NCBI GenBank assembly: GCA_004299485.1
Contig: SCQP01000008.1
Span: forward strand, 132,341-196,340
DNA: 64,000 nt
From: Acidobacteriota bacterium
GTDB taxonomy: Bacteria; Acidobacteriota; Terriglobia; Terriglobales; SCQP01
Direction of reading: 5' to 3'
This document shows, one piece after another, positions 14,226-60,704 of this stretch (positions within the stretch are counted from its first letter, which is position 1; every line of letters begins with the position of its first letter). A model generated the notes under the pieces. The model saw only the letters and a program-made list of their open reading frames with translations. It did not search any database and had not been told where the DNA came from. A program made the translations under genes and the position numbers.

Positions 14226-14247
14226 TCATTGGCAGGAGTTAAATTTT
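14215..14247 (+). terminator. riboswitch expression platform: terminator-like hairpin + U-tract that also covers the crcB SD
   Basis: CTCCTACCAA-ATCA-TTGGCAGGAG (10 bp, 1 mismatch) followed by TTAAATTTT. The 5' arm overlaps the pseudoknot strand. GGAG (14235-14238) is the likely SD for the TTG start at 14246. Confidence 0.7.
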
Positions 14248-22181: not shown

Positions 22182-23279
22182 TCAGTGCCGCAGGTCGCGG
22201 TGCGCCAGGGTGGGGCGGTAGCCCAGCTTGCGCAGCTCGCGCCGCAAGGCCTCGGCGATATAGACGGAGCGGTGGCGTCCGCCGGTGCATCCGACGGCGA
22301 TATTCAGATAGCTCTTGCCCTCCTCGATGTAATGGGGGATGAGGTAGGCCAGCAGATCGCGGATGCGGGTGAGGAACTCGGCGGTCTGGGGAAAGGAGCG
22401 GATGTATTCGGCCACCTTGCGGTCGCGGCCGTCATGCGCCTGCAGGGCGGGGATGTAGTTGGGATTGGGCAGGAAGCGGACATCAAAGACCAGATCGGCA
22501 TCGCTGGGGACGCCGCTGCGGAAGCCGAAACTGGTGACCGCGATCTGCAGGCTGGGAGCGAGACCGGCTTCAATGACGTGCTCGCGCAGGAAGGCGCGCA
22601 GCTCGTGGACGTTGAAGCGGGAGGTATCGACCACGAGGTCGGCGGCGGCGCGGATTTTCGCCAGGGCCTTGCGTTCCGCCTCGATGCCACGGCGGAGCTC
22701 CGTTTCGCCTTTGCGGCGGTCGCGGCCGTGGCTGCCATCGCGCTCGGCGAGGGGGTGGGGGCGGCGGGTTTCGCTGAAACGGCGCAGAATGGCTTCGTCA
22801 CTGGCTTCCAAAAAGAGCAGCGTCAGCCGCAGAGGTGAGTCGCGCAAGGTTTGCAGCAGGGCGGGCAGCGCCTCGAGGCGCTGGCCTTCACGGATATCGA
22901 CGACGGCGGCGACACGCTTCACTTCGCCGGAGCCGTCAAACGAGGCCTGGCGGACCAAATCGACGAAGGGACCGATCAGGCCGACGGGCAGATTATCGAC
23001 ACAGTAGTAGCCGGAATCCTCAAAGACTTTTTCGGCCGAACCCTTGCCGCTGCCACTCAGACCGGTAATGACTACGACGTGCAGATCCGATGGCGTTCGG
23101 GTTCGGTTGTGCGGCGCGCGGCGCCGCGAGTGCGGCCGCCGGCCCACTCCCTGTGCCCGCGCAACCGCGTGGCTCGCCACTTTTTGCCCTGGTCGCTCCC
23201 GTTGGTCGCTGGGAGTGCGGGCTTCGATTCCCGGCAGGGTCCGCCCGCTGGCGCTCCGGACTCCCCGAGGCGTCTTCAT
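22182..23279 (-). CDS. rapZ: RNase adapter protein RapZ (start codon uncertain; the ATG-initiated ORF includes a repeat-derived N-terminal extension)
   Basis: VVITGLSGSGKGSAEKVFEDSGYYCVDNLP and the C-terminal GCTGGRHRSV motif. The Walker A begins near residue 72 of the ORF, versus near the N-terminus in typical RapZ as I recall. The only ATG (23279) overlaps the rpoN stop as ATGA. Confidence 0.85.
   Translation of the reverse strand: MKTPRGVRSASGRTLPGIEARTPSDQRERPGQKVASHAVARAQGVGRRPHSRRRAPHNRTRTPSDLHVVVITGLSGSGKGSAEKVFEDSGYYCVDNLPVGLIGPFVDLVRQASFDGSGEVKRVAAVVDIREGQRLEALPALLQTLRDSPLRLTLLFLEASDEAILRRFSETRRPHPLAERDGSHGRDRRKGETELRRGIEAERKALAKIRAAADLVVDTSRFNVHELRAFLREHVIEAGLAPSLQIAVTSFGFRSGVPSDADLVFDVRFLPNPNYIPALQAHDGRDRKVAEYIRSFPQTAEFLTRIRDLLAYLIPHYIEEGKSYLNIAVGCTGGRHRSVYIAEALRRELRKLGYRPTLAHRDLRH
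23169..23264 (+). repeat. 110-nt repeat family 1, copy 1 (right end diverged)
   Basis: GTGGCTCGCCACTTTTTGCCCTGGTCGCTCCCGTTGGTCGCTGGGAGTGCGGGCTTCGATTCCCGGCAGGGTCCGCCCGCTGGCGCTCCGGACTCC. It matches copies 2-4 over about 96 nt. Confidence 0.85.
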
Positions 23280-33744: not shown

Positions 33745-33858
33745 GGCTCCTCAATTTTCGCAAGCGCGGCTGGGTTGGGGCGCCGGGCCCCCAGCCCAGA
33801 GAGCGGGCGGCTTTGCGAGGCGCGCAGCGCCGAGTGAAGCCGGGTGCCCGCGATTGAG

Positions 33859-38807: not shown

Positions 38808-39935
38808 ATGCTCGACACGCGCGAGGTGCTTGCTCTGCCGCAAATTGGGGAGCCGGTTCTCACCGCCTATCTCGACACCGATCCTGCCAATCCCCGTAAC
38901 CAGGGCCGCAAGGGGCCGGCAACATGGCTGCGCTCGGAAGCCCGGCGGCTAGTGGCGGCGTGGGGACCGTCGGAGCGAGAAGCCTGCCTGGCGCAGGCGG
39001 AACGAGTCGCCGAGTATCTGATGGACCGGCGCGGCGGAGGATCGAAGGGGCTGGTGGTATTTGCGGGTCCCAGGACTTGGCGCTTGCTGCCGCTGCAGGT
39101 GCGCGTGGAGGAGGAAATCTACTGGGGCGAGCCGGCGTTGGGGCAACTGCTATGGCTGCTGGACGAACATCAGCCCTGTGGGATCGTGGTGGTCAGCCGG
39201 GGCGGAGCGCGGTTTTTCCGGTACCGGATGGGTGAGATCGAGGAGGATGCCGCACGGCCCCTGCAGCTTGACACGTCGCAGTGGCGTAAGATTACGCGGG
39301 TGATGGGGCCCGGCGACGAGAAGGACATTTTTGAGCGCCGGCTCGCGGCCAACCACCAGCGCTTCTACGAGAGCGTGGCTACGGAAACGCAGCGATGGAG
39401 CGAGCGCGAGCGGTTGGAGCCGGTGCTGCTGCTGGGAGACACGAAAGCCGTTGCGCAGGTGCAGGCAGCGCTGCCGGAAGCATTTGCGGCGCGGGTGCTC
39501 AGCTCGGAGCGGAATATCACCTGCGAACGCGCCAGCGAAATCGTGGCGGTCGCGGAGCCGCTGATCCAGCAGTGGAAGCGCGAGCGGGAGCGCGCGGATG
39601 TGCAGCGCCTGCTGGAACAGCGGACGCGACCGGATGTGGTCACCGGTTTCGAGGCGACGCTGAACGCGCTGCAGGAGGGTCGCGTGCGCGAACTCATCGC
39701 CATGCGCGACCTGCGCGGGCGTGTGCGCGCCTGCCCTTCGTGCGGCTGGGTGGAGCGGGGCGGGCCGGCGGAGTGTCCCCAGTGCGGCCATGAACGGCCA
39801 GTGCAGTCGCCGCGCGCGGTGCTGCCGCAATTGGCGCAGGCGCGGGGCGTGCCGGTGGAGATTGTGGCCGGCCCAGCGGCCGAGGAGCTGGAGCGTGGCG
39901 CGGGAGGCCTGGCCGCTTGGCTCAGGGCGGCGTAA
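38808..39935 (+). CDS. bacterial eRF1-like (baeRF1 / Vms1-VLRF1-like / host-attachment family) protein with C-terminal zinc ribbon
   Basis: The layout matches baeRF1 families as I remember them. N-terminal ..PVLTAYLDTDP.., then GLVVFAG, PxLxxLLWLLDEHQPCGIVVVSRGGARFF, then a helical RFYESVA region and LLLGDTKAVAQVQAALP. CPSCGW..CPQCG lies at residues ~309-330. Confidence 0.7.
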   Translation: MLDTREVLALPQIGEPVLTAYLDTDPANPRNQGRKGPATWLRSEARRLVAAWGPSEREACLAQAERVAEYLMDRRGGGSKGLVVFAGPRTWRLLPLQVRVEEEIYWGEPALGQLLWLLDEHQPCGIVVVSRGGARFFRYRMGEIEEDAARPLQLDTSQWRKITRVMGPGDEKDIFERRLAANHQRFYESVATETQRWSERERLEPVLLLGDTKAVAQVQAALPEAFAARVLSSERNITCERASEIVAVAEPLIQQWKRERERADVQRLLEQRTRPDVVTGFEATLNALQEGRVRELIAMRDLRGRVRACPSCGWVERGGPAECPQCGHERPVQSPRAVLPQLAQARGVPVEIVAGPAAEELERGAGGLAAWLRAA

Positions 39936-40233: not shown

Positions 40234-41139
40234 CTACGCGGCGCGGCGGACGACGGGGAACATCGCGCGGAGGTCCTCGGGGAGCTGGTCGCGCACCTCC
40301 TCCATCTGGCCGTGCGAGACGAAATCGTGAAGCACGGAAAACAGGGAGATCAGGAAATCGTTGGCGGTGACCGAGTCGAGGCTGAGGGAACGGGAGATTT
40401 CCACCTGCATGGCAGCCGCTGTAACGGCGCGGTCGGGTCCGTCGGCGCAGGAGATCAGGCGCTCGTGCAGCTTGGAGGGGAGCTGAGCGATAGTGTGCTG
40501 CGCCTGCTCGGGCGTGAGGCGATGGCACAACATGCAAATGCCCAGCGCCATGCCGCGTTCGGCACGGTCATGGTCAAGACCTGTGGCCTGCATCACGGCC
40601 GTGATGAAGCGGTCGTTCACGTGCTGGGCGCGGGCTTCGGCGCGCATGCGGGAACGCATCCGGGTGCCGGCATCGGTGGCGCGGGCGGGATGCGGCACGC
40701 CCATGGGCTTGCCGGGCGCTTCGGATTCGACAAGCTGCTCGTGCACGACGGCGCGCAGATCGTCGAGGCGCACCTCGCCGGACAGGACCAGATCGTCGAA
40801 GGTAACTAAGCCGACCGGGCGGTCGGCTTCGAGCAGCGGCAGGTGGCGGACTCCGTAATCGCGCATCAGGCGCGCCACATCGGCGAGATTGGCGCTGATA
40901 GGACAGGTGAGTACACCTTCGGTCATGACTTCATCGAGGGATGTGATGACCGGATCGAGGCCTTCACCGACCACCGAAAGGGCGATGTCGCGGTCGGTGA
41001 GGATACCGGCGAGCCGGCCCTCGCGCGAGACGAGGACGGCTCCGACGTGGTTGTCGGCCATTGCACGCGCGGCCTGATAGACGGTCGAGCGCGCGGAAAG
41101 GATCACGAGTTTTTCGCGGCGGAAGGGTTCGAGGGACAT
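40234..41139 (-). CDS. CBS-pair domain protein fused to DUF2267
   Basis: The N-terminal half has two CBS repeats (VGAVLVSREGRLAGILTDRDI; VRHLPLLEADRPVGLVTFDDL). The C-terminal half has the helical DUF2267-like pattern (RFITAVMQATGLD...LPSKLHERL...EVRDQLPEDL). Confidence 0.75.
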   Translation of the reverse strand: MSLEPFRREKLVILSARSTVYQAARAMADNHVGAVLVSREGRLAGILTDRDIALSVVGEGLDPVITSLDEVMTEGVLTCPISANLADVARLMRDYGVRHLPLLEADRPVGLVTFDDLVLSGEVRLDDLRAVVHEQLVESEAPGKPMGVPHPARATDAGTRMRSRMRAEARAQHVNDRFITAVMQATGLDHDRAERGMALGICMLCHRLTPEQAQHTIAQLPSKLHERLISCADGPDRAVTAAAMQVEISRSLSLDSVTANDFLISLFSVLHDFVSHGQMEEVRDQLPEDLRAMFPVVRRAA

Positions 41140-45188: not shown

Positions 45189-45273
45189 ATTGGCTCCTTG
45201 CCCTCATCCTAATGCGGATGAGCGAATCCAGTTCTGGAGATCGAGAGCCGCAGCCGAGTCCCATTTTGACCGG

Positions 45274-45663
45274 TCAGGCGACGGCGCCGATACGCTTGGC
45301 GCGGCGAATGCGAGCGTGCTCGCGCGGGCTATGCATCGCCTCCCAGAGGTCCAGGCGACGCTGGGCGTTGAGCCAAAAGTCCGGGCTGGTGCCGAATACG
45401 CGGGCGAGGATCAGGGCGGTGGGCGCGGTGACGGCCCGGCGGTCGTTGCAAAGCTGGTTCACGTGCTTGCGAGGCACGCCCATCGCTTCGGCCAGCGCGG
45501 CCTGGGTTGGCGATGTTCGATCACTCGCCAGCCCAACTGCCTGCTCATTTCCGGCAGGAGCCAAGACATTCTTGGCGCGATCAGCGATCTCTGTGCGGTT
45601 GGCATCCTTTCGCAGCACCCGCCATTTGTGCAGTAATGTACGAACCCGTCCGTCCCGCGGCAC
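45274..45663 (-). CDS. higA: HigA-family XRE helix-turn-helix antitoxin (N-terminal boundary uncertain)
   Basis: ..SPTQAALAEAMGVPRKHVNQLCNDRRAVTAPTALILARVFGTSPDFWLNAQRRLDLWEA matches the HigA/VapI HTH core. The first ~40 codons do not look like HigA. Confidence 0.65.
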   Translation of the reverse strand: MPRDGRVRTLLHKWRVLRKDANRTEIADRAKNVLAPAGNEQAVGLASDRTSPTQAALAEAMGVPRKHVNQLCNDRRAVTAPTALILARVFGTSPDFWLNAQRRLDLWEAMHSPREHARIRRAKRIGAVA

Positions 45664-45835
45664 CTATCGATGACGAGAATCATGCTAAACACAAAGCGCA
45701 AGCCGCCCACGGTGGGTGAAATCCTGGTGGGGACCTTGAGCCCATACCGGAAAGCTCTGCCTCCTCGACCCATGTCATACGGGAGAACCGCGGTCTGTTG
45801 TGAAACCGCGTCGGTGCAGGCGGTGACGATCACGC

Positions 45836-46390
45836 TTATGGTGTCGGCCAGGGCAGCTTCTGCCACTGAGGAATTGTCTGATCCTTTCCGCGTACGGGCC
45901 CAACTGCATCGGTGTGGCGCAGCTTCCGAATTCTACAGGCACTTTCCACCGCCGAATGGCAGAACGCCAGAGAAGGCTGAGAGCAAAGTAGCCACAATGG
46001 AAAGGAGTTGCTTCGGCGGTCGAAGCAGTGCTTCAGCGTGTATTGTTCCCCCTTAGTGCAGAACGCGGACTCGCAGTCTTCACACAGGACGTACTCCTTC
46101 AGTTGGCGGACCGTCGTGACTGCGCCTCTGGAGCCAAATACGACTAGCGCATGCTGATCGTTGCCCCACAGTCTGTGGCTCGCCACTTTTTGCCCTGGTC
46201 GCTCCCGTTGGTCGCTTGGAGTGCGGGCTTCGATTCCCGGCAGGGTCCGCCCGCTGGCGCTCAGGGCTCCTCCAAGCTGCCGCCACCTGTACGCGCCAGT
46301 CGGCAGAAAGTGGCTCAGGCAGAGCTTACGGTGCTGTCGGCAAAGCGGGCAGGTCCCCATCGTTGGTTTTTTGTATGGCTTTGCCGGCAT
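45836..46390 (-). pseudogene. Cys-rich (CxxC...CxxC) ORF carrying an internal copy of the 110-nt repeat; probably decayed
   Basis: MPAKPYKKPTMGTCPLCRQHRKLCLSHFLPTGAYR-[repeat-encoded 37 aa]-..NDQHALVVFGSRGAVTTVRQLKEYVLCEDCESAFCTKGEQY.. The C-terminal third is low-quality sequence. Confidence 0.45.
46175..46284 (+). repeat. 110-nt repeat family 1, copy 2
   Basis: Full-length copy GTGGCTCGCCAC...AAGCTGCCGCC. It differs at 1-2 positions from copies 3 and 4. Confidence 0.9.
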
Positions 46391-46483
46391 CGGCGCATTT
46401 TCTCACATAGCGGCACGACGGGGGGATCCTACTCCGGCCCTTTGCTTAGGCCGCTTTCAATGACGGCGGCGACACGCACCGAT

Positions 46484-46888
46484 TCAGCCCGAGGGCGCGA
46501 GAAAGACGTCGGCGGAGAGGCTGAAGCGGGTGCTCAGGCGGCGAAGCTGTTCCAGCGTGAGTTTGCGCTGGCCGGCAAGAAACATGGACACTGCGCTCTC
46601 GGACCCAAACTGAGGAATCAGATCGCGTTGCCTGAGGTGCTGCTGCGCCATGAGAAACCGCACGATCGATACGGGATCAGCCGCCGGGATGGGATAGTGA
46701 GCTCGCTCGTAGCGCTCCACGAGCAGGGTCAGCAGTTCGACTGCCTGTGCTTCCGCCCGAGACGGATGCTCCAGGGCGGTGAGCTGGAATAGTGCGTCCG
46801 TGTACGACTCGAGCTCTTGATCGTTATGAATGACACGCGGGGCGCCATGCGCGATCATCTCTGCGGGATTGGCAAGAACTGATTTCAT
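46484..46888 (-). CDS. higA: HigA-type antitoxin / HTH regulator (partner of the HigB-family toxin)
   Basis: 134 aa. The C-terminal HTH-like segment is LIPQFGSESAVSMFLAGQRKLTLEQLRRLSTRFSLSADVFL. It lies immediately downstream of the HigB-family gene. Confidence 0.7.
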   Translation of the reverse strand: MKSVLANPAEMIAHGAPRVIHNDQELESYTDALFQLTALEHPSRAEAQAVELLTLLVERYERAHYPIPAADPVSIVRFLMAQQHLRQRDLIPQFGSESAVSMFLAGQRKLTLEQLRRLSTRFSLSADVFLAPSG

Positions 46889-47361
46889 TGTGGCTCGCCA
46901 CTTTTTGCCCTGGTCGCTCCCGTTGGTCGCTTGGAGTGCGGGCTTCGATTCCCGGCAGGGCCCGCCCGCTGGCGCTCAGGGCTCCTCCAAGCTGCCGCCG
47001 GATGCGCAAACCTCCTGTCCCAATTCCCAGGGTTGTCATACTCCTTGTGCGTCAAGAACGAGCGAATGTACACGTGGCCCTCGGTCTGCCTCCCGTCGAT
47101 CGTCTTCGCGTAATGAATGACGGTGATCAGCCTGTACCGGTTGCGCCGGACATTGAAGATTACATAACCATTGACATAATCGACGTCCTTAAACATATCT
47201 CGCACTTCGGCAAAATTGCGCCAGCGGACCGCCTCAACGATGGTCGTCCAAGCTTCCACTTCACTCGCTGCATCGGGGTGCTGCTTCATGGCCTCGCGCA
47301 GATGCCTGCGGGTGACGAGATGCACTTCCTTACCGTACTTCACGAGTCGTGAAGTTGTCAA
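46885..47361 (-). CDS. higB: HigB-family mRNA interferase toxin (PF09907-like) with a repeat-derived C-terminal tail
   Basis: ..HLVTRRHLREAMKQHPDAASEVEAWTTIVEAVRWRNFAEVRDMFKDVDYVNGYVIFNVRRNRYRLITVIHYAKT..VYIRSFLTHKEYD. The last ~40 residues (..AAAWRSPERQRAGPAGNRSPHSKRPTGATRAKSGEPQ*) are encoded by the repeat. Confidence 0.75.
   Translation of the reverse strand: MTTSRLVKYGKEVHLVTRRHLREAMKQHPDAASEVEAWTTIVEAVRWRNFAEVRDMFKDVDYVNGYVIFNVRRNRYRLITVIHYAKTIDGRQTEGHVYIRSFLTHKEYDNPGNWDRRFAHPAAAWRSPERQRAGPAGNRSPHSKRPTGATRAKSGEPQ
46890..46999 (+). repeat. 110-nt repeat family 1, copy 3
   Basis: Full-length copy. It begins 1 nt from the higA ATG (CAT-T-GTGGCTCGCC on the + strand). Confidence 0.9.
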
Positions 47362-47714
47362 ACGGCGGTTGCGAATTCAGGAACCGAAGGCCTGGCCGAG
47401 GAAGCCGAGGACACCGAGGGCGGCGATGAGCCAGAGGACGCAGCCGAGCGGACTGAGGCGTGCTTTGGGGGCTGGCCGGCGGGGTTGGCGGCGTCGGCGA
47501 AGTGCGGGGCGGTGTGGGCGCCGGTGTGGCGGCCGGAGCGGTCGGTCCAGTAGACGCCGGTGCCGGGAATGCCGACCGTGCGCGTGAGGCCGCGGCGGCC
47601 GGCGGTGAGGTGGGCGCCGCGCACGCCGAAGCTGAGCGAGGGACCGGACTTGCTCAGATTCATAGTCACGCCCGGAGCCACGCGGACGCGGCGGAAGAGG
47701 CGGACGTAGGCCAT
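47358..47714 (-). CDS. DUF4236 domain protein
   Basis: The internal Met gives MAYVRLFRRVRVAPGVTMNLSKSGPSLSFGVRGAHLTAGRRGLTRTVGIPGTGVYW, the DUF4236 pattern, followed by a low-complexity Ser/Pro tail. Confidence 0.7.
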   Translation of the reverse strand: MAYVRLFRRVRVAPGVTMNLSKSGPSLSFGVRGAHLTAGRRGLTRTVGIPGTGVYWTDRSGRHTGAHTAPHFADAANPAGQPPKHASVRSAASSGSSPPSVSSASSARPSVPEFATAV

Positions 47715-47718: not shown

Positions 47719-50700
47719 TTAGTTGGCCGTAGCCACCTTGCCCGCGGTGAGGTCCGCTTGCAGGCGGGCGGCGCCGGCATCGGCCTGCTGGATATACATG
47801 TGGGCGACGCCGATCATGCCCGAGGTCAACGGGAGGTAATTGCGATCAATGCGGCTGTTGATGCGGAACAGCCACGAGCGCAGGTGATTGCGGAAAACCA
47901 GGCTGCCTTCGCCCGACTGAATGTGCAGATTCACCAGGTCGTTGATGTCGGTGGTGAGGCGGGCGATCTGAGGCTGGGCCGCAGCCGAGCCGGAGGAGCT
48001 GGTGCGCACGTCTTTTTGCAGCACGGCGCGGGCGTCGATGGCGCGGTTCAGCGCGGTGTCGAGTTTGTTGGCGGCGTTGCGCAGGCCCATGAGGAGATCG
48101 AAACGCGCCTGCAACTCAGCCTGCGTGGTGGGCAGGTTGGGGTTGAGGGTGACGGTAAGGGGCTGCGTCACGGTGCTGCTGCCGACCGTCAGTTTGACGT
48201 CGTAGGTTCCGGGAACGACCTCGGGGCCGGTGATGGGGCCGTTCTGCTGGGTGTAGTGGTAAATGCCTTTCACCTCGACCGCGTCCGCGTAGCGCAGGTT
48301 CCACTGAAAGCGGTTCATGCCGGGATGCAGCTTGACCACGCGGCTCATGCCGCCGAAGCGGGAGCGCACGGGTTTGAGCGGGAGGGTGTAGCTGTTGATG
48401 AGCTGCCCATCAGCGGTAGTAAAGGTAAGCTTGACCGGAGTCGAGCTGGTGTAATCGGAGGGCAGATAGAAGAAGACGGTCGCGCCCGAGGCACGGCGCT
48501 CGGGACCACCGCGTCCGCCGAAGCCGAAGCCGCCGCCGCCGGCAGCGCCCTCCCAGGATTGCTGCGGCTTGAATAGATAGGGCACGGACGCGGTGACAGA
48601 GGCAGTGTTGAGCTGTTCGAGGTATTGCAGGTCATCGAGGACCCAAAACGCGCGGCCAAACGTCGCGAGTACGACGGCGTGCTGCTGCGGTTGAATTTCA
48701 ATGTCGTCGACGCGGACGGCGGGAAGATTGAGGCTTAGTGGCTGCCATTGCGCGCCCCCGTTGAGGCTGAAATAGACGGTGCGGCTGGTGGCGGCGAACA
48801 GCAGATCGGGGTCGTTGGGATCCTGGCGGACGGACTCGACGTATTCATTGTCGGGAAGGCCAGTGGTGAGCGGCGTCCAGGTTTTGCCGTAGTCGGTCGT
48901 CTTGTAGATGTAGGGGTGGAAATCATCCCAGTCGAAGCGGCTCGCCGAGACGTAGGCAGTGCCGGGCTGGGTGTTGGAAGGTTCGACGCAGGTAATGGTC
49001 GACCACTCGGGTAGCTGCGGCGGGCGAACCTCGCTCCAGTGGGCGCCATGGTTGCGGGTGAGGTAGACGAGGCCGTCGTCGGAACCAGTCCAGATGACGC
49101 CATCGGTGAGCGGCGAGAAGGCGATAGACGAAATCGTGTCAAACATCTCTTCGCCGGTGACATCTTTGCTGATCGGGCCGCCGGGACGCAGTTGCTTGGT
49201 GCGGTCGTTGCGCGTGAGGTCGGGACTGATGGCTTTCCAATGAATGCCCTGATCGGTGGTGACGAGCAGCACCTGAGCACCGAGGACGAATTCACTGGGA
49301 TTATGCGGATTGAACACGGCAGCGTGATGATTCCAGCCGAAGCGGTACTTGAGCATGCGGCCGCCGTCGCCGAACTTGAAGGCAGGCCAGGGACTAACGA
49401 GCTGGGAGAAGCCGGTGCGGCGGTTGCCGCGGTACTCATCACTGTAGTAGCCGGAGGCATAAGTGATCCAGGGCTTGCCGGGCTGGGGGACGACCCAGCT
49501 CATTTCGCCGCCGCGAACGGTGGTCCAGACGGCGGCGGGCGTGGCGCTGGAGCCTTCATCCGAGCCGCGGTCCTGCTGCGCGCCGTAAATGTGGAAGGGG
49601 AATTGATCGTCCAGGTTGGCGTGATAGAACTGGCCGGTGGGCTGATTATCTTCCGAACTCCAGGTCTTGCCGCCATCGCGGGTGACGGTGGCGCCGCCGT
49701 CGTTGCCTTCGATGAAGATCTGAGTGTTGTCGGGGTTGACCCAGAAGGCGTGATTGTCGCCATGGGGCGGGCGGAGGGTGATCAGCTTTTTGCCGGCATC
49801 GTGGGAGATGTAAACGCCCACGTTGGGCAGGTAGACGGTGTTGGGATCTTTGGGATCGGCGTAGACGCGGCCGTAGTAGAAGGCGCGCTGGGTGATGTCC
49901 TGGCTGAGGCTGATGAGGTTCCAGGTCTGGCCGGCGTTGTCAGAGCGGAAGAGGCCGCCTGCCTGGCCTTTGTAATCCGCTTGGATGAGGGCGTAGACGA
50001 CGCTGGGATCGGACGGGGAGACCGCAAGGCCGACTTTGCCGAAAATGCCCGTGGGCAGGCCGGGATTGTGGGTGATGTTGGTCCAATGCGCGCCGCCGTC
50101 GGTGGTTTTGTAAATGCCGCTGCCCGGACCTCCGCTGGAAAAGCCCCAATGACGGCGGCGCATCTGCCACATGGCGGCATAGACCACCTGCGGTTTGGAC
50201 GGGTCCATAGCCATGGTGATGGCGCCGGTGTGGTCGTTGACGTAGAGAATCTTCTGCCAGGTCTGGCCGCCATCGGTGGACTTGAAGACGCCACGCTCGG
50301 GATTAGGGCCGAAGAGATGGCCCAGGGCGGCGGCGTAAACAATATTGGGGTTCTGCGGGTCGATCAGAATCCAACTGATGATGTGGGTGTTGCCGAGGCC
50401 GGTGAACTGCCAGGTTTTGCCGCCGTCGGTGGACTTGTACATGCCTTCGCCGGTGGTGACGGTATTGCGGGGCGCGGAGTCGCCGGTGCCGACATAGATG
50501 ATTTTGGGATTGGAAGGCGCGATGGCCATGGCGCCGATGCTACCGACCTTGAAGTATTTGTCGGAGATGTTCTCCCAGGTTGAGCCGTAGTTGGTGGTTT
50601 CCCAGACGCCACCGCCGGCGGTGCCCTCGAAAAAGACATTGGGCTGGGAGGGGATGCCCGCGAGCGTCGTCACGCGGCCGCCCGTGTAGGGACCGACGCT

Positions 50701-50811
50701 GCGCCAATGCAGGCCGGCGGTGAGCTGGCTCACCGGCACCTGCGCCGCGAGCGTCAGTGGCAGCGTCAGCAACAGACCAGAAGCAAGCAAGAACCATTTG
50801 GATTTGAACAT
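47719..50811 (-). CDS. BNR/Asp-box repeat, sortilin/VPS10-like beta-propeller protein, secreted
   Basis: Signal peptide MFKSKWFLLASGLLLTLPLTLAAQ. Multiple S-x-D-x-G-x-T-W Asp-boxes (STDGGKTW, STDGGQTW, TTDGGAHW, SDNAGQTW, TRDGGKTW). Confidence 0.85.
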   Translation of the reverse strand: MFKSKWFLLASGLLLTLPLTLAAQVPVSQLTAGLHWRSVGPYTGGRVTTLAGIPSQPNVFFEGTAGGGVWETTNYGSTWENISDKYFKVGSIGAMAIAPSNPKIIYVGTGDSAPRNTVTTGEGMYKSTDGGKTWQFTGLGNTHIISWILIDPQNPNIVYAAALGHLFGPNPERGVFKSTDGGQTWQKILYVNDHTGAITMAMDPSKPQVVYAAMWQMRRRHWGFSSGGPGSGIYKTTDGGAHWTNITHNPGLPTGIFGKVGLAVSPSDPSVVYALIQADYKGQAGGLFRSDNAGQTWNLISLSQDITQRAFYYGRVYADPKDPNTVYLPNVGVYISHDAGKKLITLRPPHGDNHAFWVNPDNTQIFIEGNDGGATVTRDGGKTWSSEDNQPTGQFYHANLDDQFPFHIYGAQQDRGSDEGSSATPAAVWTTVRGGEMSWVVPQPGKPWITYASGYYSDEYRGNRRTGFSQLVSPWPAFKFGDGGRMLKYRFGWNHHAAVFNPHNPSEFVLGAQVLLVTTDQGIHWKAISPDLTRNDRTKQLRPGGPISKDVTGEEMFDTISSIAFSPLTDGVIWTGSDDGLVYLTRNHGAHWSEVRPPQLPEWSTITCVEPSNTQPGTAYVSASRFDWDDFHPYIYKTTDYGKTWTPLTTGLPDNEYVESVRQDPNDPDLLFAATSRTVYFSLNGGAQWQPLSLNLPAVRVDDIEIQPQQHAVVLATFGRAFWVLDDLQYLEQLNTASVTASVPYLFKPQQSWEGAAGGGGFGFGGRGGPERRASGATVFFYLPSDYTSSTPVKLTFTTADGQLINSYTLPLKPVRSRFGGMSRVVKLHPGMNRFQWNLRYADAVEVKGIYHYTQQNGPITGPEVVPGTYDVKLTVGSSTVTQPLTVTLNPNLPTTQAELQARFDLLMGLRNAANKLDTALNRAIDARAVLQKDVRTSSSGSAAAQPQIARLTTDINDLVNLHIQSGEGSLVFRNHLRSWLFRINSRIDRNYLPLTSGMIGVAHMYIQQADAGAARLQADLTAGKVATAN

Positions 50812-50929
50812 GGCGGCAGATCCCCTCTCACAGGTCACAGAGTGACCGAGCCTAGGCCCAAAAAAGAGCTGGCGAAGGAACTATAGCGCAGAGGGGAGTG
50901 GCAGAGCTATAGATGCAGGAAATTTCATA

Positions 50930-51039
50930 GTGGCTCGCCACTTTTTGCCCTGGTCGCTCCCTTTGGTCGCTTGGAGTGCGGGCTTCGATTCCCGGCAGGG
51001 TCCGCCCGCTGGCGCTCCGGGCTCCTCCAAGCTGCCGCC
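50930..51039 (+). repeat. 110-nt repeat family 1, copy 4
   Basis: Full-length copy, intergenic between the bacilliredoxin stop and the BNR gene start. Confidence 0.9.
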
Positions 51040-51060: not shown

Positions 51061-51483
51061 TCACACACCGCTGGCAACGCAAAAATGCCCAAACGCAGCG
51101 GCAAGATCGGCGGCGATGGCCTCAACCGGACGGCCGAGGATTTGATCGCGCTCCATCATGAAAATCAGCTTGCCGCCGGAAAATAGCGCAAAGGCAGGCG
51201 AGGACGGCTGATAGGGAGCGAGAAAAGCGCGGGCGCGGGCGGTCGGGGCCAGGTCCTGACCGGCAAACACGGTTACGAGATGATCCGGCCGCGGCGCGCT
51301 CTGGAGCGCCTGCGCGACGGCCGGACGCGCCAGGACGGCGTGAGGACAAAAGGTATTGACTACCAGCAGCGTCGTGCCCTCTGTGGCCAGGGCTGCGTCC
51401 ACGTCTGCTGGCGTGTGCAACTGAAGGAAGCCGATGCGCGTCAGTTCTTCCCGCATCGGTGTGACCCATATTTCTGGATACAT
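51061..51483 (-). CDS. BrxA/BrxB (YphP/YqiW, DUF1094) bacilliredoxin-family protein with a variant active site
   Basis: MYPEIWVTPMREELTRIGF..LLVVNTFCPHAVLARP..HLVTVFAGQD..SSPAFALF. It is colinear with bacilliredoxins, but the remembered CGC motif reads FCPH here. Confidence 0.75.
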   Translation of the reverse strand: MYPEIWVTPMREELTRIGFLQLHTPADVDAALATEGTTLLVVNTFCPHAVLARPAVAQALQSAPRPDHLVTVFAGQDLAPTARARAFLAPYQPSSPAFALFSGGKLIFMMERDQILGRPVEAIAADLAAAFGHFCVASGV

Positions 51484-53947: not shown

Positions 53948-55325
53948 GGTGGACTCCTTTCACGCTGGCCAGCAGGTTCATCAGGTCGGCGATTTTCCGG
54001 TTCTCGAGATCCTCGACCGCTTCTGCGATTTTCTGGCGCAAGGGTGCAGGCGCGTACGGCTCGCTCAGACGGTTGAATTTATCGAGCGCGGTCTTCCAGG
54101 TAAACGGATGGGTATGGAAGCCTTCGTAGTCGCGGCCCTCCTCTGTCAGCGTGCGGCCATCGGTCAAATGAATCGTCACTTTGCAGGGCATCTCCTCCGG
54201 GAAGCGGGCGCTGTAGGCGGCGTTCGGCTTCACGCTGACATTGCGCAGCAGGGTTTGGACTTGCGGCCGCTGGATGCGCTCAGGCAGATACTGCTCGGGC
54301 GTAACTTCGCCATCCACAATCGCAGTGGCGACCATGTAGTTCAGGCTATGGTCGGCTTCTTCTTTCGTCCGCACCAGCGTTTTGGCGCCTTCCTCGCCGC
54401 CGCCGATGATGTTGAAGGCGACGTCGAAAACCTCCAGCTCGAGGCGGCTGACAGCGGCCGCCTGGAAACCGTATTGGCGCTTCATAGCCAGCACCGTCTC
54501 CAGCACCGACTGTGAGTGCACCTCAGCGTTGTACTTCTTGACGATGGTGCGGGTGACGCACTCCAGGTCTTCGCGCGCCCAGTCGATCTCGAAATGTCCG
54601 GAGATGGCGTCCATGAAGCCCTTGTTGCCCTCAAACACCTCCGGCGGGCCAGTGATGCCGCGCATCGCCAGAAAGGCGGCGTGGGTGCCGCAGAAATCGG
54701 TGTTCGGGTACGCCAGGCCTTTCCAGTTGGACAGGGCGCCGGTGCGGGTCACGCGCAGGGCGTTAAAGGCGGTGCCACTGATGGCGATCGCGTTGGTGGT
54801 TTGCGCCACGTTCAGTCCCAGCGCGCGCGCTACGCCGGCAGCGACGGCAAACGAACCCAGCGTGGTGTGGTCGAAGCCTTTGGCGCGCACCGGCGCCACG
54901 TCGCACAGACGGCACAGCACCTGATAGGCCAGCGCCACGGCGGCCAGGAATTCCTTGCCGTCGCGGCCGGCGTACTCCGACGCGGTGAGGACGGCGCCAA
55001 TGTTGTCGCTGGGATGGCAGGTTTCGCCCTTGGCGAGGTAGCTGTCATTGAAGTCGAGGTAGCGGACGAGCGCGCTGTTGTAAAAGGCAGCGCGGTCGGG
55101 CGCCGTCCTGCCGCCGCCGATGAGCGTGGCCATGGGCCGGCCGCCAAAGTCATCGGTGTGCTGACGCAGCAGCAGCACGGGAGGACCGTCCAGCGCGCCG
55201 ATGGCGCACCCCAGGGCATCGAGCACCCGGATTTTGGCCTGCAGGCGGGCAGCCTCCGACAGGCTGCGGTACGAGGCCCCCACTGCGAATTCCGCAAGCG
55301 CTGCGGCATAGGTCATCGCACCCAC
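53925..55325 (-). CDS. MmgE/PrpD-family dehydratase
   Basis: 466 aa. The N-terminal ..RVLDALGCAIGAL.. and the overall length and pattern match the PrpD family. Confidence 0.8.
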   Translation of the reverse strand: MGAMTYAAALAEFAVGASYRSLSEAARLQAKIRVLDALGCAIGALDGPPVLLLRQHTDDFGGRPMATLIGGGRTAPDRAAFYNSALVRYLDFNDSYLAKGETCHPSDNIGAVLTASEYAGRDGKEFLAAVALAYQVLCRLCDVAPVRAKGFDHTTLGSFAVAAGVARALGLNVAQTTNAIAISGTAFNALRVTRTGALSNWKGLAYPNTDFCGTHAAFLAMRGITGPPEVFEGNKGFMDAISGHFEIDWAREDLECVTRTIVKKYNAEVHSQSVLETVLAMKRQYGFQAAAVSRLELEVFDVAFNIIGGGEEGAKTLVRTKEEADHSLNYMVATAIVDGEVTPEQYLPERIQRPQVQTLLRNVSVKPNAAYSARFPEEMPCKVTIHLTDGRTLTEEGRDYEGFHTHPFTWKTALDKFNRLSEPYAPAPLRQKIAEAVEDLENRKIADLMNLLASVKGVHHGAPKSA

Positions 55326-55415
55326 CTCCTTCTTCAGTTTACCCGACAGCGTGATGTGTGGAACACAGCATGGGTGTGATACAAGTCACGTGAGTAGAAC
55401 CGCGCTACTATCGAA

Positions 55416-56819
55416 ATGCGCGTATTCGTTATGCCGATTGCTCCCAGCCGCCTCAGCCTGCTGACGGATCTTTACGAGCTCACCATGGCCGCGGGTTATT
55501 TCGAGCGCCGGCTGGAGGCACGCGCCACGTTTGCACTGTTTGTGCGCTCGCTGCCGCCCCGCCGCGGGTTTCTGCTCGCTTGCGGGATCGAGGCCGCACT
55601 GGATTACATCGAGCAGCTCTCATTTTCGGGTGAGGAGATCGGTTACCTGCGTCAGCTTCCAGCCTTCCGTACGGTGTCGAGCCGGTTTTTCGACTTTCTT
55701 GGCCGGCTCCGATTCGAGGGTGATGTGGCCGCCGTAGCGGAAGGCACCGCCGTCTTCGCCGGCGAACCCATTCTTCAGATTTCCGCGCCCATCATTCAGG
55801 CGCAAATTGTGGAAACCTATCTGCTCTCGGTCGTCAACTTCGAAACCCTCATCGCCACCAAGGCGGCGCGGGTGGTGGAAGCCGCGGCCGGCCGCGACGT
55901 CGTCGAGTTTGGCACACGCCGCGCACAGGGGCCCGAGGCCGGGCTGCGCGCGGCGCGCGCCGCCTACCTCGGCGGCTGCGCCGGGACCTCGAACGTGCTG
56001 GCCGGCTTCCGCTGGGGCATTCCTATCGCCGGCACGGCGGCACACTCCTGGACGCAGGCGTTCCCCAGTGAACGCGAGAGTTTTGAGGCGCTGCTCAAGA
56101 CGTTTCCGCAATCCGCCTACTTGCTGCTGGACACCTACGACACGCTGGCTGCGGCCCGCATGGCGGCAGAATTCGATGTGCCGATTCCCGGGGTCCGGCT
56201 GGATAGCGGTGATCTGGCGGCGCTGAGCCGCGAAGTCCGCAAGATTCTGGACCGGGGCGGTCACCGCGAAACCAAAATCATGGCCAGCGGCAATCTGAAC
56301 GAGGACAAAGTCGCGGCGCTGGTGGCGGCGGGCACGCCGATCGACTCCTTTGGCGTGGGCACCGAGCTGGCCACCTCGCACGACGCCCCCGCTCTGAACG
56401 CCATCTACAAGCTGGTGGAAATCGAGGCGCAGGGCCGCATCCGCCCGATTACCAAGACGGAAGAAGGCAAGGGCTATTTTCCCGGCAAGAAGCAGGTATT
56501 CCGGTTCAGCCGCAGCGGCCGCTTCGATCACGACGTTCTGGCTCGCAGCGACGAACCGATCACCGGCGCAAGGCCGCTGCTGCAGCCGGTGATGCGGTCG
56601 GGGAAGCGATTGCAGGCAGCGGCGGCGGCGCAGACGATCCGGGCGCATGCGCGCGAACAGGTGCAGAGCCTGCCAGAGGGCGTCAGGGCGCTCAGGAACG
56701 CGACTGCCTATCGCGTTGAGCCCAGCGCCGCGTTACAGGAACTCGACGCCGGAGTACGCAAGGCACTCGGCGAGCCAAAGAATCATGAGCGAAGCGCAGC
56801 TGGTATTTCTCGACATTGA
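55416..56819 (+). CDS. pncB: nicotinate phosphoribosyltransferase
   Basis: LLTDLYELTMAAGYF opening, then GTAAHSW, LLDTYDT and VRLDSGDL. Confidence 0.9.
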   Translation: MRVFVMPIAPSRLSLLTDLYELTMAAGYFERRLEARATFALFVRSLPPRRGFLLACGIEAALDYIEQLSFSGEEIGYLRQLPAFRTVSSRFFDFLGRLRFEGDVAAVAEGTAVFAGEPILQISAPIIQAQIVETYLLSVVNFETLIATKAARVVEAAAGRDVVEFGTRRAQGPEAGLRAARAAYLGGCAGTSNVLAGFRWGIPIAGTAAHSWTQAFPSERESFEALLKTFPQSAYLLLDTYDTLAAARMAAEFDVPIPGVRLDSGDLAALSREVRKILDRGGHRETKIMASGNLNEDKVAALVAAGTPIDSFGVGTELATSHDAPALNAIYKLVEIEAQGRIRPITKTEEGKGYFPGKKQVFRFSRSGRFDHDVLARSDEPITGARPLLQPVMRSGKRLQAAAAAQTIRAHAREQVQSLPEGVRALRNATAYRVEPSAALQELDAGVRKALGEPKNHERSAAGISRH

Positions 56820-57396
56820 CACGCAGGTGGACTTCATGCTGCCCGCGGGCGCGCTTTACGTGCCCGGCGCGGAAACCATCATTCCCAACCTGCAACGGTT
56901 GATGACCTTCGCCGCCGCGCAGCGGCTGCTGGTGCTGTCTTCGGCCGACGCCCACGCACCCGACGACCCCAGCTTCGCGCAATGGCCACCGCACTGCGTC
57001 GCCGGCACGCCCGGACAGCAAAGGATTGCCGAGACGCGAATGCCCGCGCCGCTCCTTCTCCTCAACCGGCCGGGGGCATTCCGGCCGCCGGCGCCGGCTG
57101 CGGGCCAGGTGATTCTGGAAAAGATCGACTACGACGTCTCCTCGAATCCGAATTTCGATCCGTTGCTGCGCGCACTGGGCGACAGCCGCTTCGTCGTTTT
57201 TGGCGTCGCTACCGGCTACTGCGTCCAGGCTTCGGCGCTGGCGCTCCGGCGCCGCGGCTATGCCGTCATCGTCGTGACCGACGCCATTCGCGGCATCACC
57301 GAGGAGGGCCACCAAACGGCTTTGCGCACGCTCGCTGAGGCTGGTGTCCGTTTTGCAAGCACCGATGACGTGCTTGCCCTGTCGGCCACGGGCTGA
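56785..57396 (+). CDS. pncA: isochorismatase-family hydrolase (nicotinamidase-like)
   Basis: The internal ATG gives MSEAQLVFLDIDTQVDFM..WPPHCVAGTPG..VVFGVATGYCV. It overlaps the pncB 3' end. Confidence 0.8.
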   Translation: MSEAQLVFLDIDTQVDFMLPAGALYVPGAETIIPNLQRLMTFAAAQRLLVLSSADAHAPDDPSFAQWPPHCVAGTPGQQRIAETRMPAPLLLLNRPGAFRPPAPAAGQVILEKIDYDVSSNPNFDPLLRALGDSRFVVFGVATGYCVQASALALRRRGYAVIVVTDAIRGITEEGHQTALRTLAEAGVRFASTDDVLALSATG

Positions 57397-57465: not shown

Positions 57466-58167
57466 ATGACGGTTGTTGAGCGTGAGCAGGCGTTCCAGCG
57501 GCTGCAGCAGAAGATTATCGGCTCGCGCGCCTGCCCGCGGCTGGCCGTCTATTGCCGCCGGGTGGCGAAGACCAAGCGGCTGATGTTCCGCGATCAGCCC
57601 TACTGGGGCAAGGCGCTGCCCAGCTTCGGCGACCAGAGCGCGGAACTGCTCATCATCGGCCTGGCGCCGGCCGCGCACGGCGGCAACCGCACCGGCCGCA
57701 TGTTTACCGGCGACCGTTCGGGCGACTTTCTCTTCCGGGCGCTATATGAAGCCGGTTTCGCCAATCAACCGACCTCCGTACACGCCGCCGACGGCCTGGC
57801 GCTGCGCAACTGCTACATCTCGACGGTGGTGCGCTGGGCGCCGCCGCAGAACAAGCCCACGCCGGAGGAAATCCGCCGCTGTCTGCCCTTTCTGCAACGC
57901 GAGCTGGAGCTGCTGGACCGCGTGCGCGCGGTGCTGCCGCTGGGCCGGCTTGCCTATGACGCCTATCTCCGTCTCGCACGCGAGCAGGCCAAGCTGCCGC
58001 CAAAAAACCAGATGCCCTTCGCGCACGGCGCGGTCTTCGATCTGCCGCGACCGCTGCCGCGCCTGTATTGCTCCTACCACCCCAGCCAGCACAACACCCA
58101 GACCGGGCGGCTGACGCCGGCCATGTTCGGCCAGGTGCTGCACGATATCCAGGAGTATCTGTCGTGA
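57466..58167 (+). CDS. uracil-DNA glycosylase superfamily protein (family 4/5, UdgB-like)
   Basis: MTVVEREQAF..C.RL...C.., GLAPAAHGGNRTGRMFTGDRSG, and the C-terminal HPSQHN. Confidence 0.8.
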   Translation: MTVVEREQAFQRLQQKIIGSRACPRLAVYCRRVAKTKRLMFRDQPYWGKALPSFGDQSAELLIIGLAPAAHGGNRTGRMFTGDRSGDFLFRALYEAGFANQPTSVHAADGLALRNCYISTVVRWAPPQNKPTPEEIRRCLPFLQRELELLDRVRAVLPLGRLAYDAYLRLAREQAKLPPKNQMPFAHGAVFDLPRPLPRLYCSYHPSQHNTQTGRLTPAMFGQVLHDIQEYLS

Positions 58168-60648: not shown

Positions 60649-60657
60649 CTAGAGCCA

Positions 60658-60704
60658 CATTGACTGGCGCGGGGCCTGGCGTGGCTGCGCCACGCCACCC
60701 GCTT
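60658..60704 (+). repeat. hairpin repeat family 2, copy B (REP-like)
   Basis: CATTGACTGGCGCGGGGCCT-GGCGTGGC-TGC-GCCACGCC-ACCCGCTT, followed by the GC hairpin GGGGGCC..GGCCCCC. Confidence 0.8.

Follow-up and report, generated by a model that had tools for sequence, protein, structure and literature searches.

What is the sequence of about 110 nt that recurs four times on one strand of this 64,000-nt stretch (the window) of an Acidobacteriota genome, and how did one copy come to lie inside the gene at 45836-46390? The evidence presented here makes it very probable that it is a non-autonomous mobile repeat of one Acidobacteriota lineage (Terriglobales). The element resembles the Rickettsia palindromic elements (RPE) and is tolerated within proteins, and it is non-palindromic and strand-oriented.

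Copies in the window

The earlier note had reported four nearly identical copies in a single orientation, and this observation is confirmed, with identities of 97-100%. A 41-nt core pattern allowing at most 3 mismatches matches the + strand exactly four times (at 23208, 46214, 46929 and 50969), and 100 shuffles of the window predict none by chance. Alignment and a repeat finder place the copies at 23169-23264/8, 46175-46284, 46890-46999 and 50930-51039. Copies 2-4 are as close as originally described, with copy 3 differing from copy 2 at one position and copy 4 at two. Copy 1 is ~97-99% identical across its first 88-96 nt and divergent after that. Two further candidates, an inverted partial copy at 40467-40507 and a 13-mer at 57989-58001 within the UDG gene, were rejected as chance-level similarities.

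Comparison with empty sites (see below) defines the inserted unit as 111 nt, or exactly 37 codons, which is one purine (R) more at the 3' end than 110. Counting this extra purine, the 3' ends of copies 2, 3 and 4 are corrected to 46285, 47000 and 51040. The copies and the genes that they affect are as follows.

23169-23264, + strand: copy 1, covering element positions 1-96, with a diverged or truncated 3' end; intergenic
46175-46285, + strand: copy 2 (the focal copy), full 111-nt element; its minus-strand reading gives 37 codons (WRQLGGALSASGRTLPGIEARTPSDQRERPGQKVASH)
45836-46390, - strand: host gene of copy 2, from a widespread ~265-aa family of unknown function with motifs CxLC...SHxxP...LLCxxCE
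46890-47000, + strand: copy 3, full 111-nt element, in frame within the second-to-last higB codon (C|AA)
46885-47361, - strand: higB toxin gene, lengthened by copy 3 (Pfam PF09907, E=7.6e-22)
46484-46888, - strand: putative higA antitoxin gene, without a Pfam match; also called in locus L018
50930-51040, + strand: copy 4, full 111-nt element, intergenic, TGA-free variant (CTCCGGG)

Copy 1 does occupy the rpoN/rapZ junction: the rpoN stop (23276-23278) lies on one side of it and the true rapZ start (~23085) on the other. That start was placed from the Pfam match to the RapZ N-terminal domain beginning at residue 67 of the long ORF. The Cys-rich ORF that holds copy 2 in frame is a real gene, with homologues that lack exactly that stretch. 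Its protein has 184 aa here versus ~265 aa in the family, and this shortening suggests that the host gene may therefore be decaying.

Copy 3 gives HigB 37 extra residues (..PAAAWRSPERQRAGPAGNRSPHSKRPTGATRAKSGEP..) ahead of its original Q-stop, and the HigB_toxin domain stops at residue 110 of the 158-aa protein. This copy was first thought to replace the higB stop, which is wrong: the original stop and its ATGA stop/start overlap with higA are retained, and deleting the 111 nt in silico restores ...FAHQ* with the TGA overlapping the higA ATG. The distance of 1 nt between the higA ATG and the 5' end of copy 3 was given correctly. Copy 4 is indeed intergenic, lying 21 nt past the stop of a disulphide-isomerase-family gene (51061-51483) and 91 nt ahead of the start of a BNR/sortilin gene (47719-50838).

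Ends and internal features of the element

The element has the layout 5'-GTGGCTCGCCAC TTTTTG ... AAGCTGCCGCC-R-3' (in short form GTGGCTCGCCAC...GCTGCCGCC+R) and codes for no protein of its own. All of the complementary segments reported earlier are present (GTGGC/GCCAC, GCTTGGAG/CTCCAAGC and GCGGGC/GCCCGC), as is the direct duplication, which consists of TGGTCGCT at element positions 22-29 and 35-42. The sole compact hairpin lies at the 5' end and is given here for copy 2.

46175-46192, + strand: small hairpin GTGGC-TC-GCCAC, then TTTTTG

This helix is paired in 98% of cells, without covariation, and a terminator scan does not call it. The reported lack of terminal inverted repeats (TIRs) stands, since the ends GTGGCTCGCCAC... 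and ...GCTGCCGCCR are not mutual inverses. At most, an offset 4-nt match (TGGC/GCCA) links the two ends, and the 5' third is unpaired with the 3' end. One variant of the element carries an internal 21-nt insertion and is 132 nt long, with the frame kept.

Empty sites and target preference

The position of the element differs between orthologous yjbQ genes, and each therefore serves as an empty site for the other; what has been inserted measures exactly 111 nt and has left no duplication. In locus L004, one member of a VOC-family paralogue pair has a 37-codon insert that the other lacks. All three filled/empty comparisons (yjbQ, VOC) thus show a plain 111-nt insertion without target duplication, which agrees with the earlier note. 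The existence of empty sites in relatives also shows that the element is not ancestral conserved coding sequence.

Protein alignments give the same picture. For ThiE and a NirA/SirA-type reductase, alignments to solved structures split around the inserts, which fall between conserved blocks, and the host reading frame is correct on both flanks in these two genes and in the host gene of copy 2. In an M24 peptidase, the domain exceeds the length of its Pfam profile by 36 residues. A single-sequence AlphaFold model of a ThiE with the insert (P0006) has a mean pLDDT of 36, too low for use.

The DNA-level set comprises 23 independent full-length insertions, besides copy 1 of the window and partial copies. 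At position +5, which lies four bases past the insert's 3' end, 22 of these 23 have G (binomial P=2e-9), and all 23 have a purine at +1. Weaker preferences exist for A at +3, G at +4 and A or C at +6. The target G is already found in empty sites, and the 5' flanks of the 23 insertions contain no target motif. In the window the conserved base has the following positions.

46289 (copy 2), 47004 (copy 3) and 51044 (copy 4), + strand: conserved target G, the fourth base downstream of the insert's 3' end

Microhomology between the element and its flanks averages 2.7 matches on the left (control 3.25) and 4.3 on the right (control 3.35; z ~2.6). A model in which a flank shares microhomology with the opposite element end, through a circle junction (written ...GCCGCCR|GTGGCTCG...), was rejected after two anecdotal cases and an unconvincing systematic test.

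Reading frames and coding

The two reverse-complement frames originally described as open are open, and that description was incomplete, as all three + frames are open too. The sixth frame is interrupted by a single TGA that is absent from copies with ...GCTCCGGG... (copies 1 and 4 in the window). Five or more open frames occur in ~14% of random 111-nt windows of this genome, and stop-codon depletion as a designed feature is not significant (P about 0.09-0.14). These frames do not establish that the element is built to be translated, because stop-poor frames are common in a GC-rich genome.

Not all open frames are used. Among 26 protein clusters, frame -b has 13 matches (12 full-length), -c has 9 (8 full-length), +1 has 6 and -a has 2; frames +2 and +3 are unused, and -a is used only in the TGA-free form. 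All eight sense-strand insertions are in frame +1. This restricted usage is consistent with translation followed by selection on the peptide. With a length of 37 codons and nearly no stops, genic insertions therefore retain the frame and add 37 residues.

Distribution and carrier genes

A genome scan finds copies in Terriglobales assemblies only, and a protein search finds carriers only in Acidobacteria/Terriglobales assemblies and metagenomes. There are at least 45 separate insertions, many within conserved enzymes, and ~34 carrier protein clusters, which include ThiE, RibA, UppS, sulfite/nitrite reductase, HycI, M24 peptidase, YjbQ and Ham1. N-terminal and C-terminal fusions also occur among the carrier ORFs. 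The element can be dense, with 4 copies in the 64-kb window, 5 copies in 5.3 kb of locus L023 and 3 copies in 6 kb of locus L004. Two scan hits were discarded as chance matches, one from the genome scan (L001) and one from a metagenome scan with the 3' 21-mer (L008).

Together these insertions at unrelated sites support the view that this is a recently spread dispersed repeat without TIRs or target duplication. The parallel drawn with in-frame survival of RPE also holds, both from insert-free homologues and from the number of carrier clusters. Nor are the copies pieces of a larger insertion sequence (IS) or prophage, a possibility that had been raised: their edges are sharp, their flanks are unrelated, and searches of phages, plasmids and viral contigs yield no element matches. 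Descent from an integron attC or prophage att repeat was likewise rejected, as the ends lack long-range pairing, copy 1 sits between core genes and no integrase is nearby.

A strain 99.3% identical to the window has all three of the 45-51 kb copies, with ordinary SNP density inside them, and this comparison gives no sign of present-day element activity. A separate REP-like repeat family co-occurs in the carrier genomes.

Orientation and strand skew

All copies in the window are antisense to the surrounding genes, as the earlier note stated. This does not extend to relatives, where the sense direction occurs too. Orientation instead tracks strand GC skew, not transcription direction. The + strand of the element lies on the G-rich strand in ~24 of 27 insertions (11 of 14 loci), a count in which GC skew is a proxy for replication direction and same-locus copies are not independent. 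Three insertions have the opposite orientation, and in 12 of 13 neighbouring pairs the two copies share an orientation. The GC skew of the carrier genomes is very strong, independent of gene direction and very large at third codon positions. No dif-like site is found near the skew change at ~56 kb of the window.

Alternative explanations

The element could in principle be a structured non-coding or cis-regulatory RNA (a tRNA-like RNA, an Acidobacteria motif, a terminator or an attenuator) that is kept for its fold. Complementary segments of 8, 6 and 5 bp, a T-run, a TTCGATT motif and the single strand common to all four window copies speak for this idea, which the earlier note had entertained; the tests of it are negative throughout. 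At gathering score, an Rfam 15 scan of the window, its tRNA and Acidobacteria models included, returns a tRNA-Glu and a fluoride riboswitch only. At E<=10 across 46100-47100 there is only noise, the best match over the element (E=1.3) having 15 bits against a 100-bit cut-off. The supposed tRNA T-arm is a 4-bp stem with an 8-nt loop, then 45 nt, and ARAGORN finds only the genuine tRNA-Glu in the window and nothing on the element, so the likeness and a tRNA-derived origin were both dropped. On neither strand does the folding energy differ from that of shuffles (z=0.02 and -0.32). Across 21 copies, 0 of 19 base pairs show two-sided (compensatory) change, no better than shuffles, a result with power limited by low divergence, and in 8 of the 21 a particular stem pair is disrupted. 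Promoter and terminator scans leave the element unflagged, and it occurs in both orientations relative to genes and in four coding frames. We regard a conserved RNA as highly unlikely.

The other explanations differ in what they take the insert to be. A classical MITE, which arises from a DDE-transposase IS by internal deletion and moves by TIR-mediated cut-and-paste, would account for the size of ~110 bp, the number of copies and the absence of coding capacity, and an IS110-family transposase gene does lie 1.2 kb from one copy in locus L013. This description, suggested at the outset, fails in its classical sense on the two features that define the ends, since TIRs beyond the offset 4-nt match and target duplications are both absent; in the window and ~300 kb of loci, no IS with the element's ends was seen. 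The IS110 beside yjbQ in L013 was rejected as mobiliser, given that it is missing from the orthologous locus L009, where the copies are still present, and that the region is unalignable. IS110 elements have long specific targets, unlike the diverse targets seen here. We therefore judge a classical MITE very unlikely. Much the same low probability attaches to an intron-like, bypassed or intein-like insert, one removed once the gene has been transcribed or translated, which would leave its hosts unaffected. The essential-looking carriers ThiE, RibA, UppS and sulfite reductase would suit such removal. However, every length found, that of the 132-nt variant included, is divisible by three, the stop-bearing frame is seen only as the stop-free variant, and two frames are never used. 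These limits on frame and length count against removal because they are expected only if the insert is translated and retained. In addition, an intein would need far more than 37 residues, and the element matches no ribozyme family.

If the unit were instead a functional 37-residue protein module spread between genes by recombination, the peptide AAAWRSPERQRADPAGNRSPHSKRPTGATRAKSGEP in ~12 unrelated proteins would be explained. Against this, one DNA sequence is read in four frames on both strands to give unrelated peptides, which are of low complexity and without a Pfam match. It is the DNA sequence that is conserved, third codon positions included, and intergenic copies are as well conserved as genic ones. 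Such a module is extremely improbable. Chimeric joins at the repeat during metagenome assembly deserve mention because all sources are metagenome-assembled genomes, some contigs end within the repeat (L007) and one copy is near the end of L004. Yet identical insertions with identical flanks recur in independent ENA, JGI and NCBI assemblies (8 contigs for P0024 and 5 for P0001), the window insertions are present in GCA_040961365.1 as well, and reading frames run correctly across both sides of the inserts. The chance that the element is an assembly artefact is close to negligible.

Mode of movement

A mobile repeat thus remains the preferred explanation. With no mobilising enzyme or full-length parent found, we infer its mobility from its distribution and from empty sites; movement itself is not directly observed. 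The window contains no transposase, and across the window and ~300 kb of loci no transposase adjoins any examined copy and no parent IS shares the element's ends. The element most likely has no function for the cell and persists as selfish DNA at sites that can accommodate an added loop or an intergenic insert.

The element might be moved by an enzyme whose gene lies elsewhere in the genome and which uses one particular strand, either at the replication fork or in step with it. Candidate routes would be the single-strand HUH/Y1 transposases (of IS200/IS605 and their short derivatives) or other replication-coupled pathways. The orientation bias makes this fork-coupled, strand-specific movement plausible enough to propose, although we would put its probability below even. 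A broader proposal is no more probable: the element could represent a new kind of mobile DNA, a 37-codon, non-palindromic, fork-oriented and duplication-free repeat with G-marked sites that is moved by an HUH-like or other fork-coupled enzyme and adds loops to housekeeping enzymes, in a lineage whose genome is also exceptionally asymmetric between its strands. If this proposal is true, the element might offer an entry point to how RPE-like "protein-coding" repeats move. To our knowledge, the movement mechanism of RPE-type repeats has never been established.

Comparison with known repeats

RPE (Ogata et al. 2000 and 2002, summarised in PMC2229807 and PMC10969869) are dispersed gene-less repeats, in ten Rickettsia families, found between genes and in frame within housekeeping genes; a palindromic sequence, long stem-loops and terminal inverted repeats of ~12 bp are described for them (PMC2229807, Table 1). 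The present element is similar in its size (100-150 bp), lack of genes, presence both between genes and in frame within conserved genes, and survival of the interrupted ORF. By these descriptions it is set apart from RPE in having no palindrome, long stem-loop or TIR, and also in its length of exactly 37 codons, its skew-following orientation and its one-sided target preference. The hosts differ as well, being AT-rich obligate intracellular alphaproteobacteria for RPE and a free-living, GC-rich Acidobacterium here.

In-frame ORF fusions are also described for the betaproteobacterial BRE, ERIC/IRU, the 107-bp Correia element and pneumococcal BOX/RUP (PMC3184786, PMC2229807). Like copies 2 and 3, these short open-frame repeats extend or interrupt genes at 5', 3' or internal positions. 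They are, however, mostly MITE-like, with TIRs, TA ends, target duplications and long hairpins, none of which the present element has.

IS200/IS605 and palindrome-associated transposable elements are single-strand transposons with short derivatives (PMC5027513, PMC6006769, PMC7290912). The likenesses are the absence of TIRs and target duplication, asymmetric ends, a one-sided target and a replication-tied orientation bias, seen here through the GC-skew proxy. The details fit poorly. In those transposons an imperfect hairpin stands near each end, at some distance from the cleavage site, and a defined 4-5-nt target lies 5' of the left end; the present element has a single 5-bp hairpin at its extreme 5' end, no compact hairpin near its 3' end and a more degenerate target. 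The window and the loci covered yielded no Y1 transposase. Its one strong target base also falls on the side opposite to expectation if the G-rich-strand copy is the active "top" strand. The resemblance may therefore serve as a lead to how the element works, and we claim no membership of that family.

REP/REPIN sequences, moved by RAYT transposases (PMC3733652, PMC6006769), are a further parallel. They too are short, abundant, gene-less repeats that are mobilised in trans without target duplication. Unlike the 111-nt, non-palindromic and often genic element, REPs are 20-40-nt palindromes tagged GTAG or CGTC that are nearly all extragenic.

Implications

The best-known cases of in-frame selfish repeats in conserved genes come from the reduced intracellular bacteria of the genus Rickettsia. 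The same phenomenon now appears in free-living, GC-rich soil and peat Acidobacteria, where it adds 37 residues to thiamine-phosphate synthase, GTP cyclohydrolase II, sulfite/nitrite reductase and undecaprenyl-diphosphate synthase. The phenomenon is therefore wider than the textbook example and independent of palindromic structure. The papers cited here describe only a few other families of in-frame genic repeats (PMC3184786, PMC2229807). The clean 111-nt insertion, the one-sided target base and the replication-associated strand tie are testable leads on movement.

The element also has consequences for annotation. It inflates or fuses ORF calls, as in the 365-aa "RapZ" ORF and the 158-aa HigB, it breaks assemblies, and its common peptide creates false "homology" among unrelated proteins.

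Copies and boundaries of the element

The element is a mobile repeat of 111 nt (37 codons). Its sequence at 46175-46284 agrees with the transcription made in the earlier note, and a window search with a 41-nt core (up to three mismatches) returned four matches, all on the + strand (23208, 46214, 46929 and 50969), where shuffled sequence is expected to give 0. Alignment and a repeat finder delimit the same copies, which confirms the original description of four near-identical repeats on one strand.

Copies of the element in the window
23169-23264, + strand, copy 1
46175-46284, + strand, copy 2
46890-46999, + strand, copy 3
50930-51039, + strand, copy 4

Copies 2-4 are identical except at one or two positions, and copy 1 matches over ~96 nt and is divergent beyond. 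The edges of the repeat are sharp, since all four copies have unrelated flanks.

The proposed comparison of filled and empty sites in relatives could be made at yjbQ, which lies in a syntenic block (SDR-yjbQ-glycosyltransferase) in two related genomes. One yjbQ (P0001) carries the element at two places and the other (P0024) at a third, so that each gene supplies empty sites to compare with its counterpart. The two informative junctions agree: the filled site equals the empty site plus GTGGC...GCCGCC and one purine, a clean insertion of 111 nt, and no bases are duplicated at either junction. A pair of VOC-family paralogues at locus L004 shows the same 37-codon difference. The ends of the element are not inverted copies of one another.

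Insertion within genes

Copy 2 lies in an ORF at 45836-46390 (minus strand) with ~200 homologues, which belong to one family, roughly 265 residues long and marked by the motifs CxLC...SHxxP...LLCxxCE. In the homologues the N-terminal and following blocks are joined directly, and the window protein has WRQLGG...KVASH between them, which bears out the view that this copy sits in frame inside a gene. A premature stop also limits the gene product to 184 residues, and the gene may be decaying. Copy 3 falls within the second-to-last codon of higB. When its 111 nt are taken out, the ending ...F-A-H-Q-stop is regained, with a TGA that overlaps the higA ATG; the copy therefore adds 37 residues to HigB and does not, as the earlier note supposed, replace its stop. 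Copy 1 is placed between the rpoN stop and the true rapZ start, and the 365-aa "RapZ" ORF is a read-through artefact of the element because the RapZ domain begins only at residue 67. Copy 4 is within a 222-bp spacer.

Two gene calls in the window are affected by read-through of the element: the "RapZ" ORF at 22182-23279 (-) is enlarged by ~62 spurious N-terminal residues, and HigB at 46885-47361 (-) has 158 aa rather than ~121. Proteins extended or fused in a similar way also appear where related assemblies have been publicly annotated. A small islet of low third-position GC (45200-47400) resembles accessory DNA and contains two of the four copies; it also carries an HTH antitoxin-like gene (45274-45663), the truncated CxLC...SH-family gene and higB/higA.

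As most frames of the element are open, its six translations were concatenated and used to search the protein collection. The 26 clusters obtained all come from Acidobacteria/Terriglobales assemblies or metagenomes, and many of them contain known domains, including YjbQ, thiamine-phosphate synthase, HycI, ArsR, VOC, HigB, alpha/beta hydrolase, UppS, GTP cyclohydrolase II, PIN, SDR, RHH, FkbM and NarJ-like. An exhaustive search with the window host protein added eight carriers, among them Ham1, MarR, PMT and a 1658-aa NHL-repeat protein. Alignments to known structures place the insert between conserved blocks in two enzymes. The match of the thiamine-phosphate synthase carrier to B. subtilis ThiE breaks into two blocks, with 42 residues between them in the query versus 6 in the structure, and the sulfite/nitrite reductase of L004 likewise aligns to M. 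tuberculosis NirA in two blocks, 48 residues apart versus 9. In addition, an M24 peptidase domain runs 36 residues beyond the length of its Pfam profile.

Frame use is uneven. In the 26 clusters the reverse complement is read in -b in 13 cases (12 full-length), in -c in 9 (8 full-length) and in -a in 2; the + strand is read in +1 in six cases and never in +2 or +3. All 8 sense-strand insertions that could be placed are in +1, both -a cases are a variant with GGA in place of that frame's sole TGA, and the internal length variant is longer by 21 nt. As these constraints on frame, stops and length make sense only if the insert stays in the mRNA and is translated, the sequences give evidence that it would be translated and filtered by selection. 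We do not claim that the element is shaped for coding, because at least five open frames are likewise present in about 14% of 111-nt windows drawn at random from this genome. Its few stops are unremarkable, and its length and GC-rich background are enough to explain its tolerance.

Distribution

A scan of one genome per species with the exact core 21-mer found, besides one chance match, only Terriglobales metagenome-assembled genomes (JBOGKK and JBOGKQ). JBOGKK has at least six copies within the fetched loci, and JBOGKQ has one internally deleted variant. This short form (L003, 3297-3385) is without positions ~22-48 (TGGTCGCTCCCGTTGGTCGCTTGGAGT), and its deletion is bounded by an internal direct repeat region. 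A second 21-mer yielded only a chance match in JGI metagenome contigs, and viral contigs, phage records and plasmid records gave no match.

All carriers are metagenome-assembled genomes, and independent assemblies repeat identical insertions. DNA of some carriers provided 23 independent full-length insertions, not counting window copy 1 or a number of partial copies. The Ga03073xx/ERZ272568xx samples contain a second subfamily with about 86-90% sequence identity, and a further variant, 132 nt long, has an internal insertion of 21 nt. Between the window (41.7-51.3 kb) and a contig of GCA_040961365.1 identity is 99.28%; all three copies are shared, with the SNP density of their flanks.

In a related contig (L023, 1000-3298), five copies in a single orientation occupy 2.3 kb of mostly non-coding DNA. 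Three are full-length and two partial or diverged, one is of the 132-nt type, and in one a 1-nt indel causes a frameshift. Because their flanks differ, this is a local pile-up of insertions and not a tandem duplication.

Possible RNA structure

The suggestion that the repeat might be a structured RNA found no support in any test applied. At the gathering score, Rfam matches in the whole window are confined to tRNA-Glu and a fluoride riboswitch; a permissive scan of 46100-47100 returned only noise (best E=1.3, 15 bits against a 100-bit cut-off), and ARAGORN found no tRNA-like gene at the element. Folding of either strand is no better than that of dinucleotide shuffles (z=0.02 and -0.32). The three stems originally proposed were tested against 21 aligned copies, drawn from several genomes, in which no pair has two-sided changes, variation breaks pairs (one pair of the 8-bp stem in 8/21) and the stems score no better than column shuffles. 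A simple promoter/terminator scan did not flag the element. Little divergence among the copies limits the power of these comparisons; a structure is improbable, and nothing supports one.

The fluoride riboswitch (Rfam RF01734, 38 bits) is at 14147-14227 (+), just upstream of the ORF at 14246-14680.

Relation to known repeats and mode of movement

Repeats that fuse in frame with genes include Rickettsia palindromic elements (RPEs), BRE, ERIC and the 107-bp Correia element (PMC2229807, PMC3184786, PMC10969869), and the present element behaves like them. The initial RPE/MITE-like label thus holds for RPE-type in-frame behavior but not for structure: the element lacks the palindrome and ~12-bp terminal inverted repeats that define RPEs, as well as the terminal inverted repeats and target duplication of classical MITEs. 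No paper that connects Acidobacteria with such elements turned up in a full-text literature search. We class it as an RPE-like, protein-tolerated mobile repeat, non-palindromic and strand-oriented, in a new phylum.

No transposase or recombinase gene adjoins any copy examined. The 44 window ORFs picked out are mostly ordinary chromosomal genes, and those scanned against Pfam include no transposase. An IS110 gene near one copy was considered as the mobilizer and rejected, as it is missing from the orthologous locus. Insertions share no motif in the 5' flank. On the other side, the first base after GCCGCC is a purine in 23/23 and, judging by the empty sites, is part of the insert; four positions past it there is a G in 22/23 (P=2e-9), which is also present in empty sites and is surrounded by weaker A, G and A/C preferences.

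Orientation is also biased. Neighboring pairs point in the same direction in 12/13 cases, and for about 24/27 insertions (11/14 loci, with two opposite and one mixed) the G-rich strand carries the + strand of the element. GC skew in these genomes is very strong and independent of gene direction: it is +0.06 to +0.19 on the window + strand over the first 50 kb, and -0.18 to -0.39 over 20 kb of the related contig L013, where third-codon-position skew is as low as -0.77. At locus L025 a + strand gene carries the element in antisense and a - strand gene ~1 kb away carries it in sense; its absolute orientation is the same in both, so transcription does not explain it.

Single-strand HUH transposition of IS200/IS605 targets the lagging-strand template (PMC5027513, PMC6006769), and replication-linked orientation is also seen in other IS families (PMC3971601). 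Like IS200/IS605, the element has asymmetric ends, inserts without duplication or inverted repeats, and has a one-sided target preference and replication-linked orientation. The details do not fit well, however, because IS200/IS605 has two hairpins set back from its ends whereas the element has one terminal 5-bp hairpin, and its single strongly conserved target base is on the unexpected side. Given this misfit and the similar orientation of other IS families, we name no enzyme, and movement in trans by a fork-coupled, strand-specific enzyme is proposed only tentatively, at somewhat below even chances.

Other features

Third-position skew in the window is +0.1 to +0.5 in genes of either strand and ~0 or slightly negative from 55.4 kb; the change near 55000-57000 could mark a replichore boundary or a rearrangement. 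The IS110 gene in L013 (1-20651) has much weaker skew (-0.19), as expected of a recent arrival.

A second, unrelated repeat is a GC-rich REP-like hairpin, GCGGG..GCGTGGC-TGC-GCCACGC..CCCGC, whose copies are sited at gene ends and show compensatory changes between them.

Copies of the REP-like repeat
4216-4263, 12791-12838 and 60657-60704, window
12849-12878 and 33768-33797, window
about 10590-10640 and 13195-13335, L013

A ~126-nt relative lies in frame within the yjbQ gene of L013, so more than one repeat family is tolerated inside genes in this lineage. The window also contains tandem paralogous MacB/FtsX-type ABC permease genes (28846-31290 and 31297-33744, -; 72-83% DNA identity, offset 2451-2454 nt) and, at 38808-39935 (+), a gene that encodes a bacterial archaeo-eukaryotic release-factor-like (baeRF) family 10 protein.
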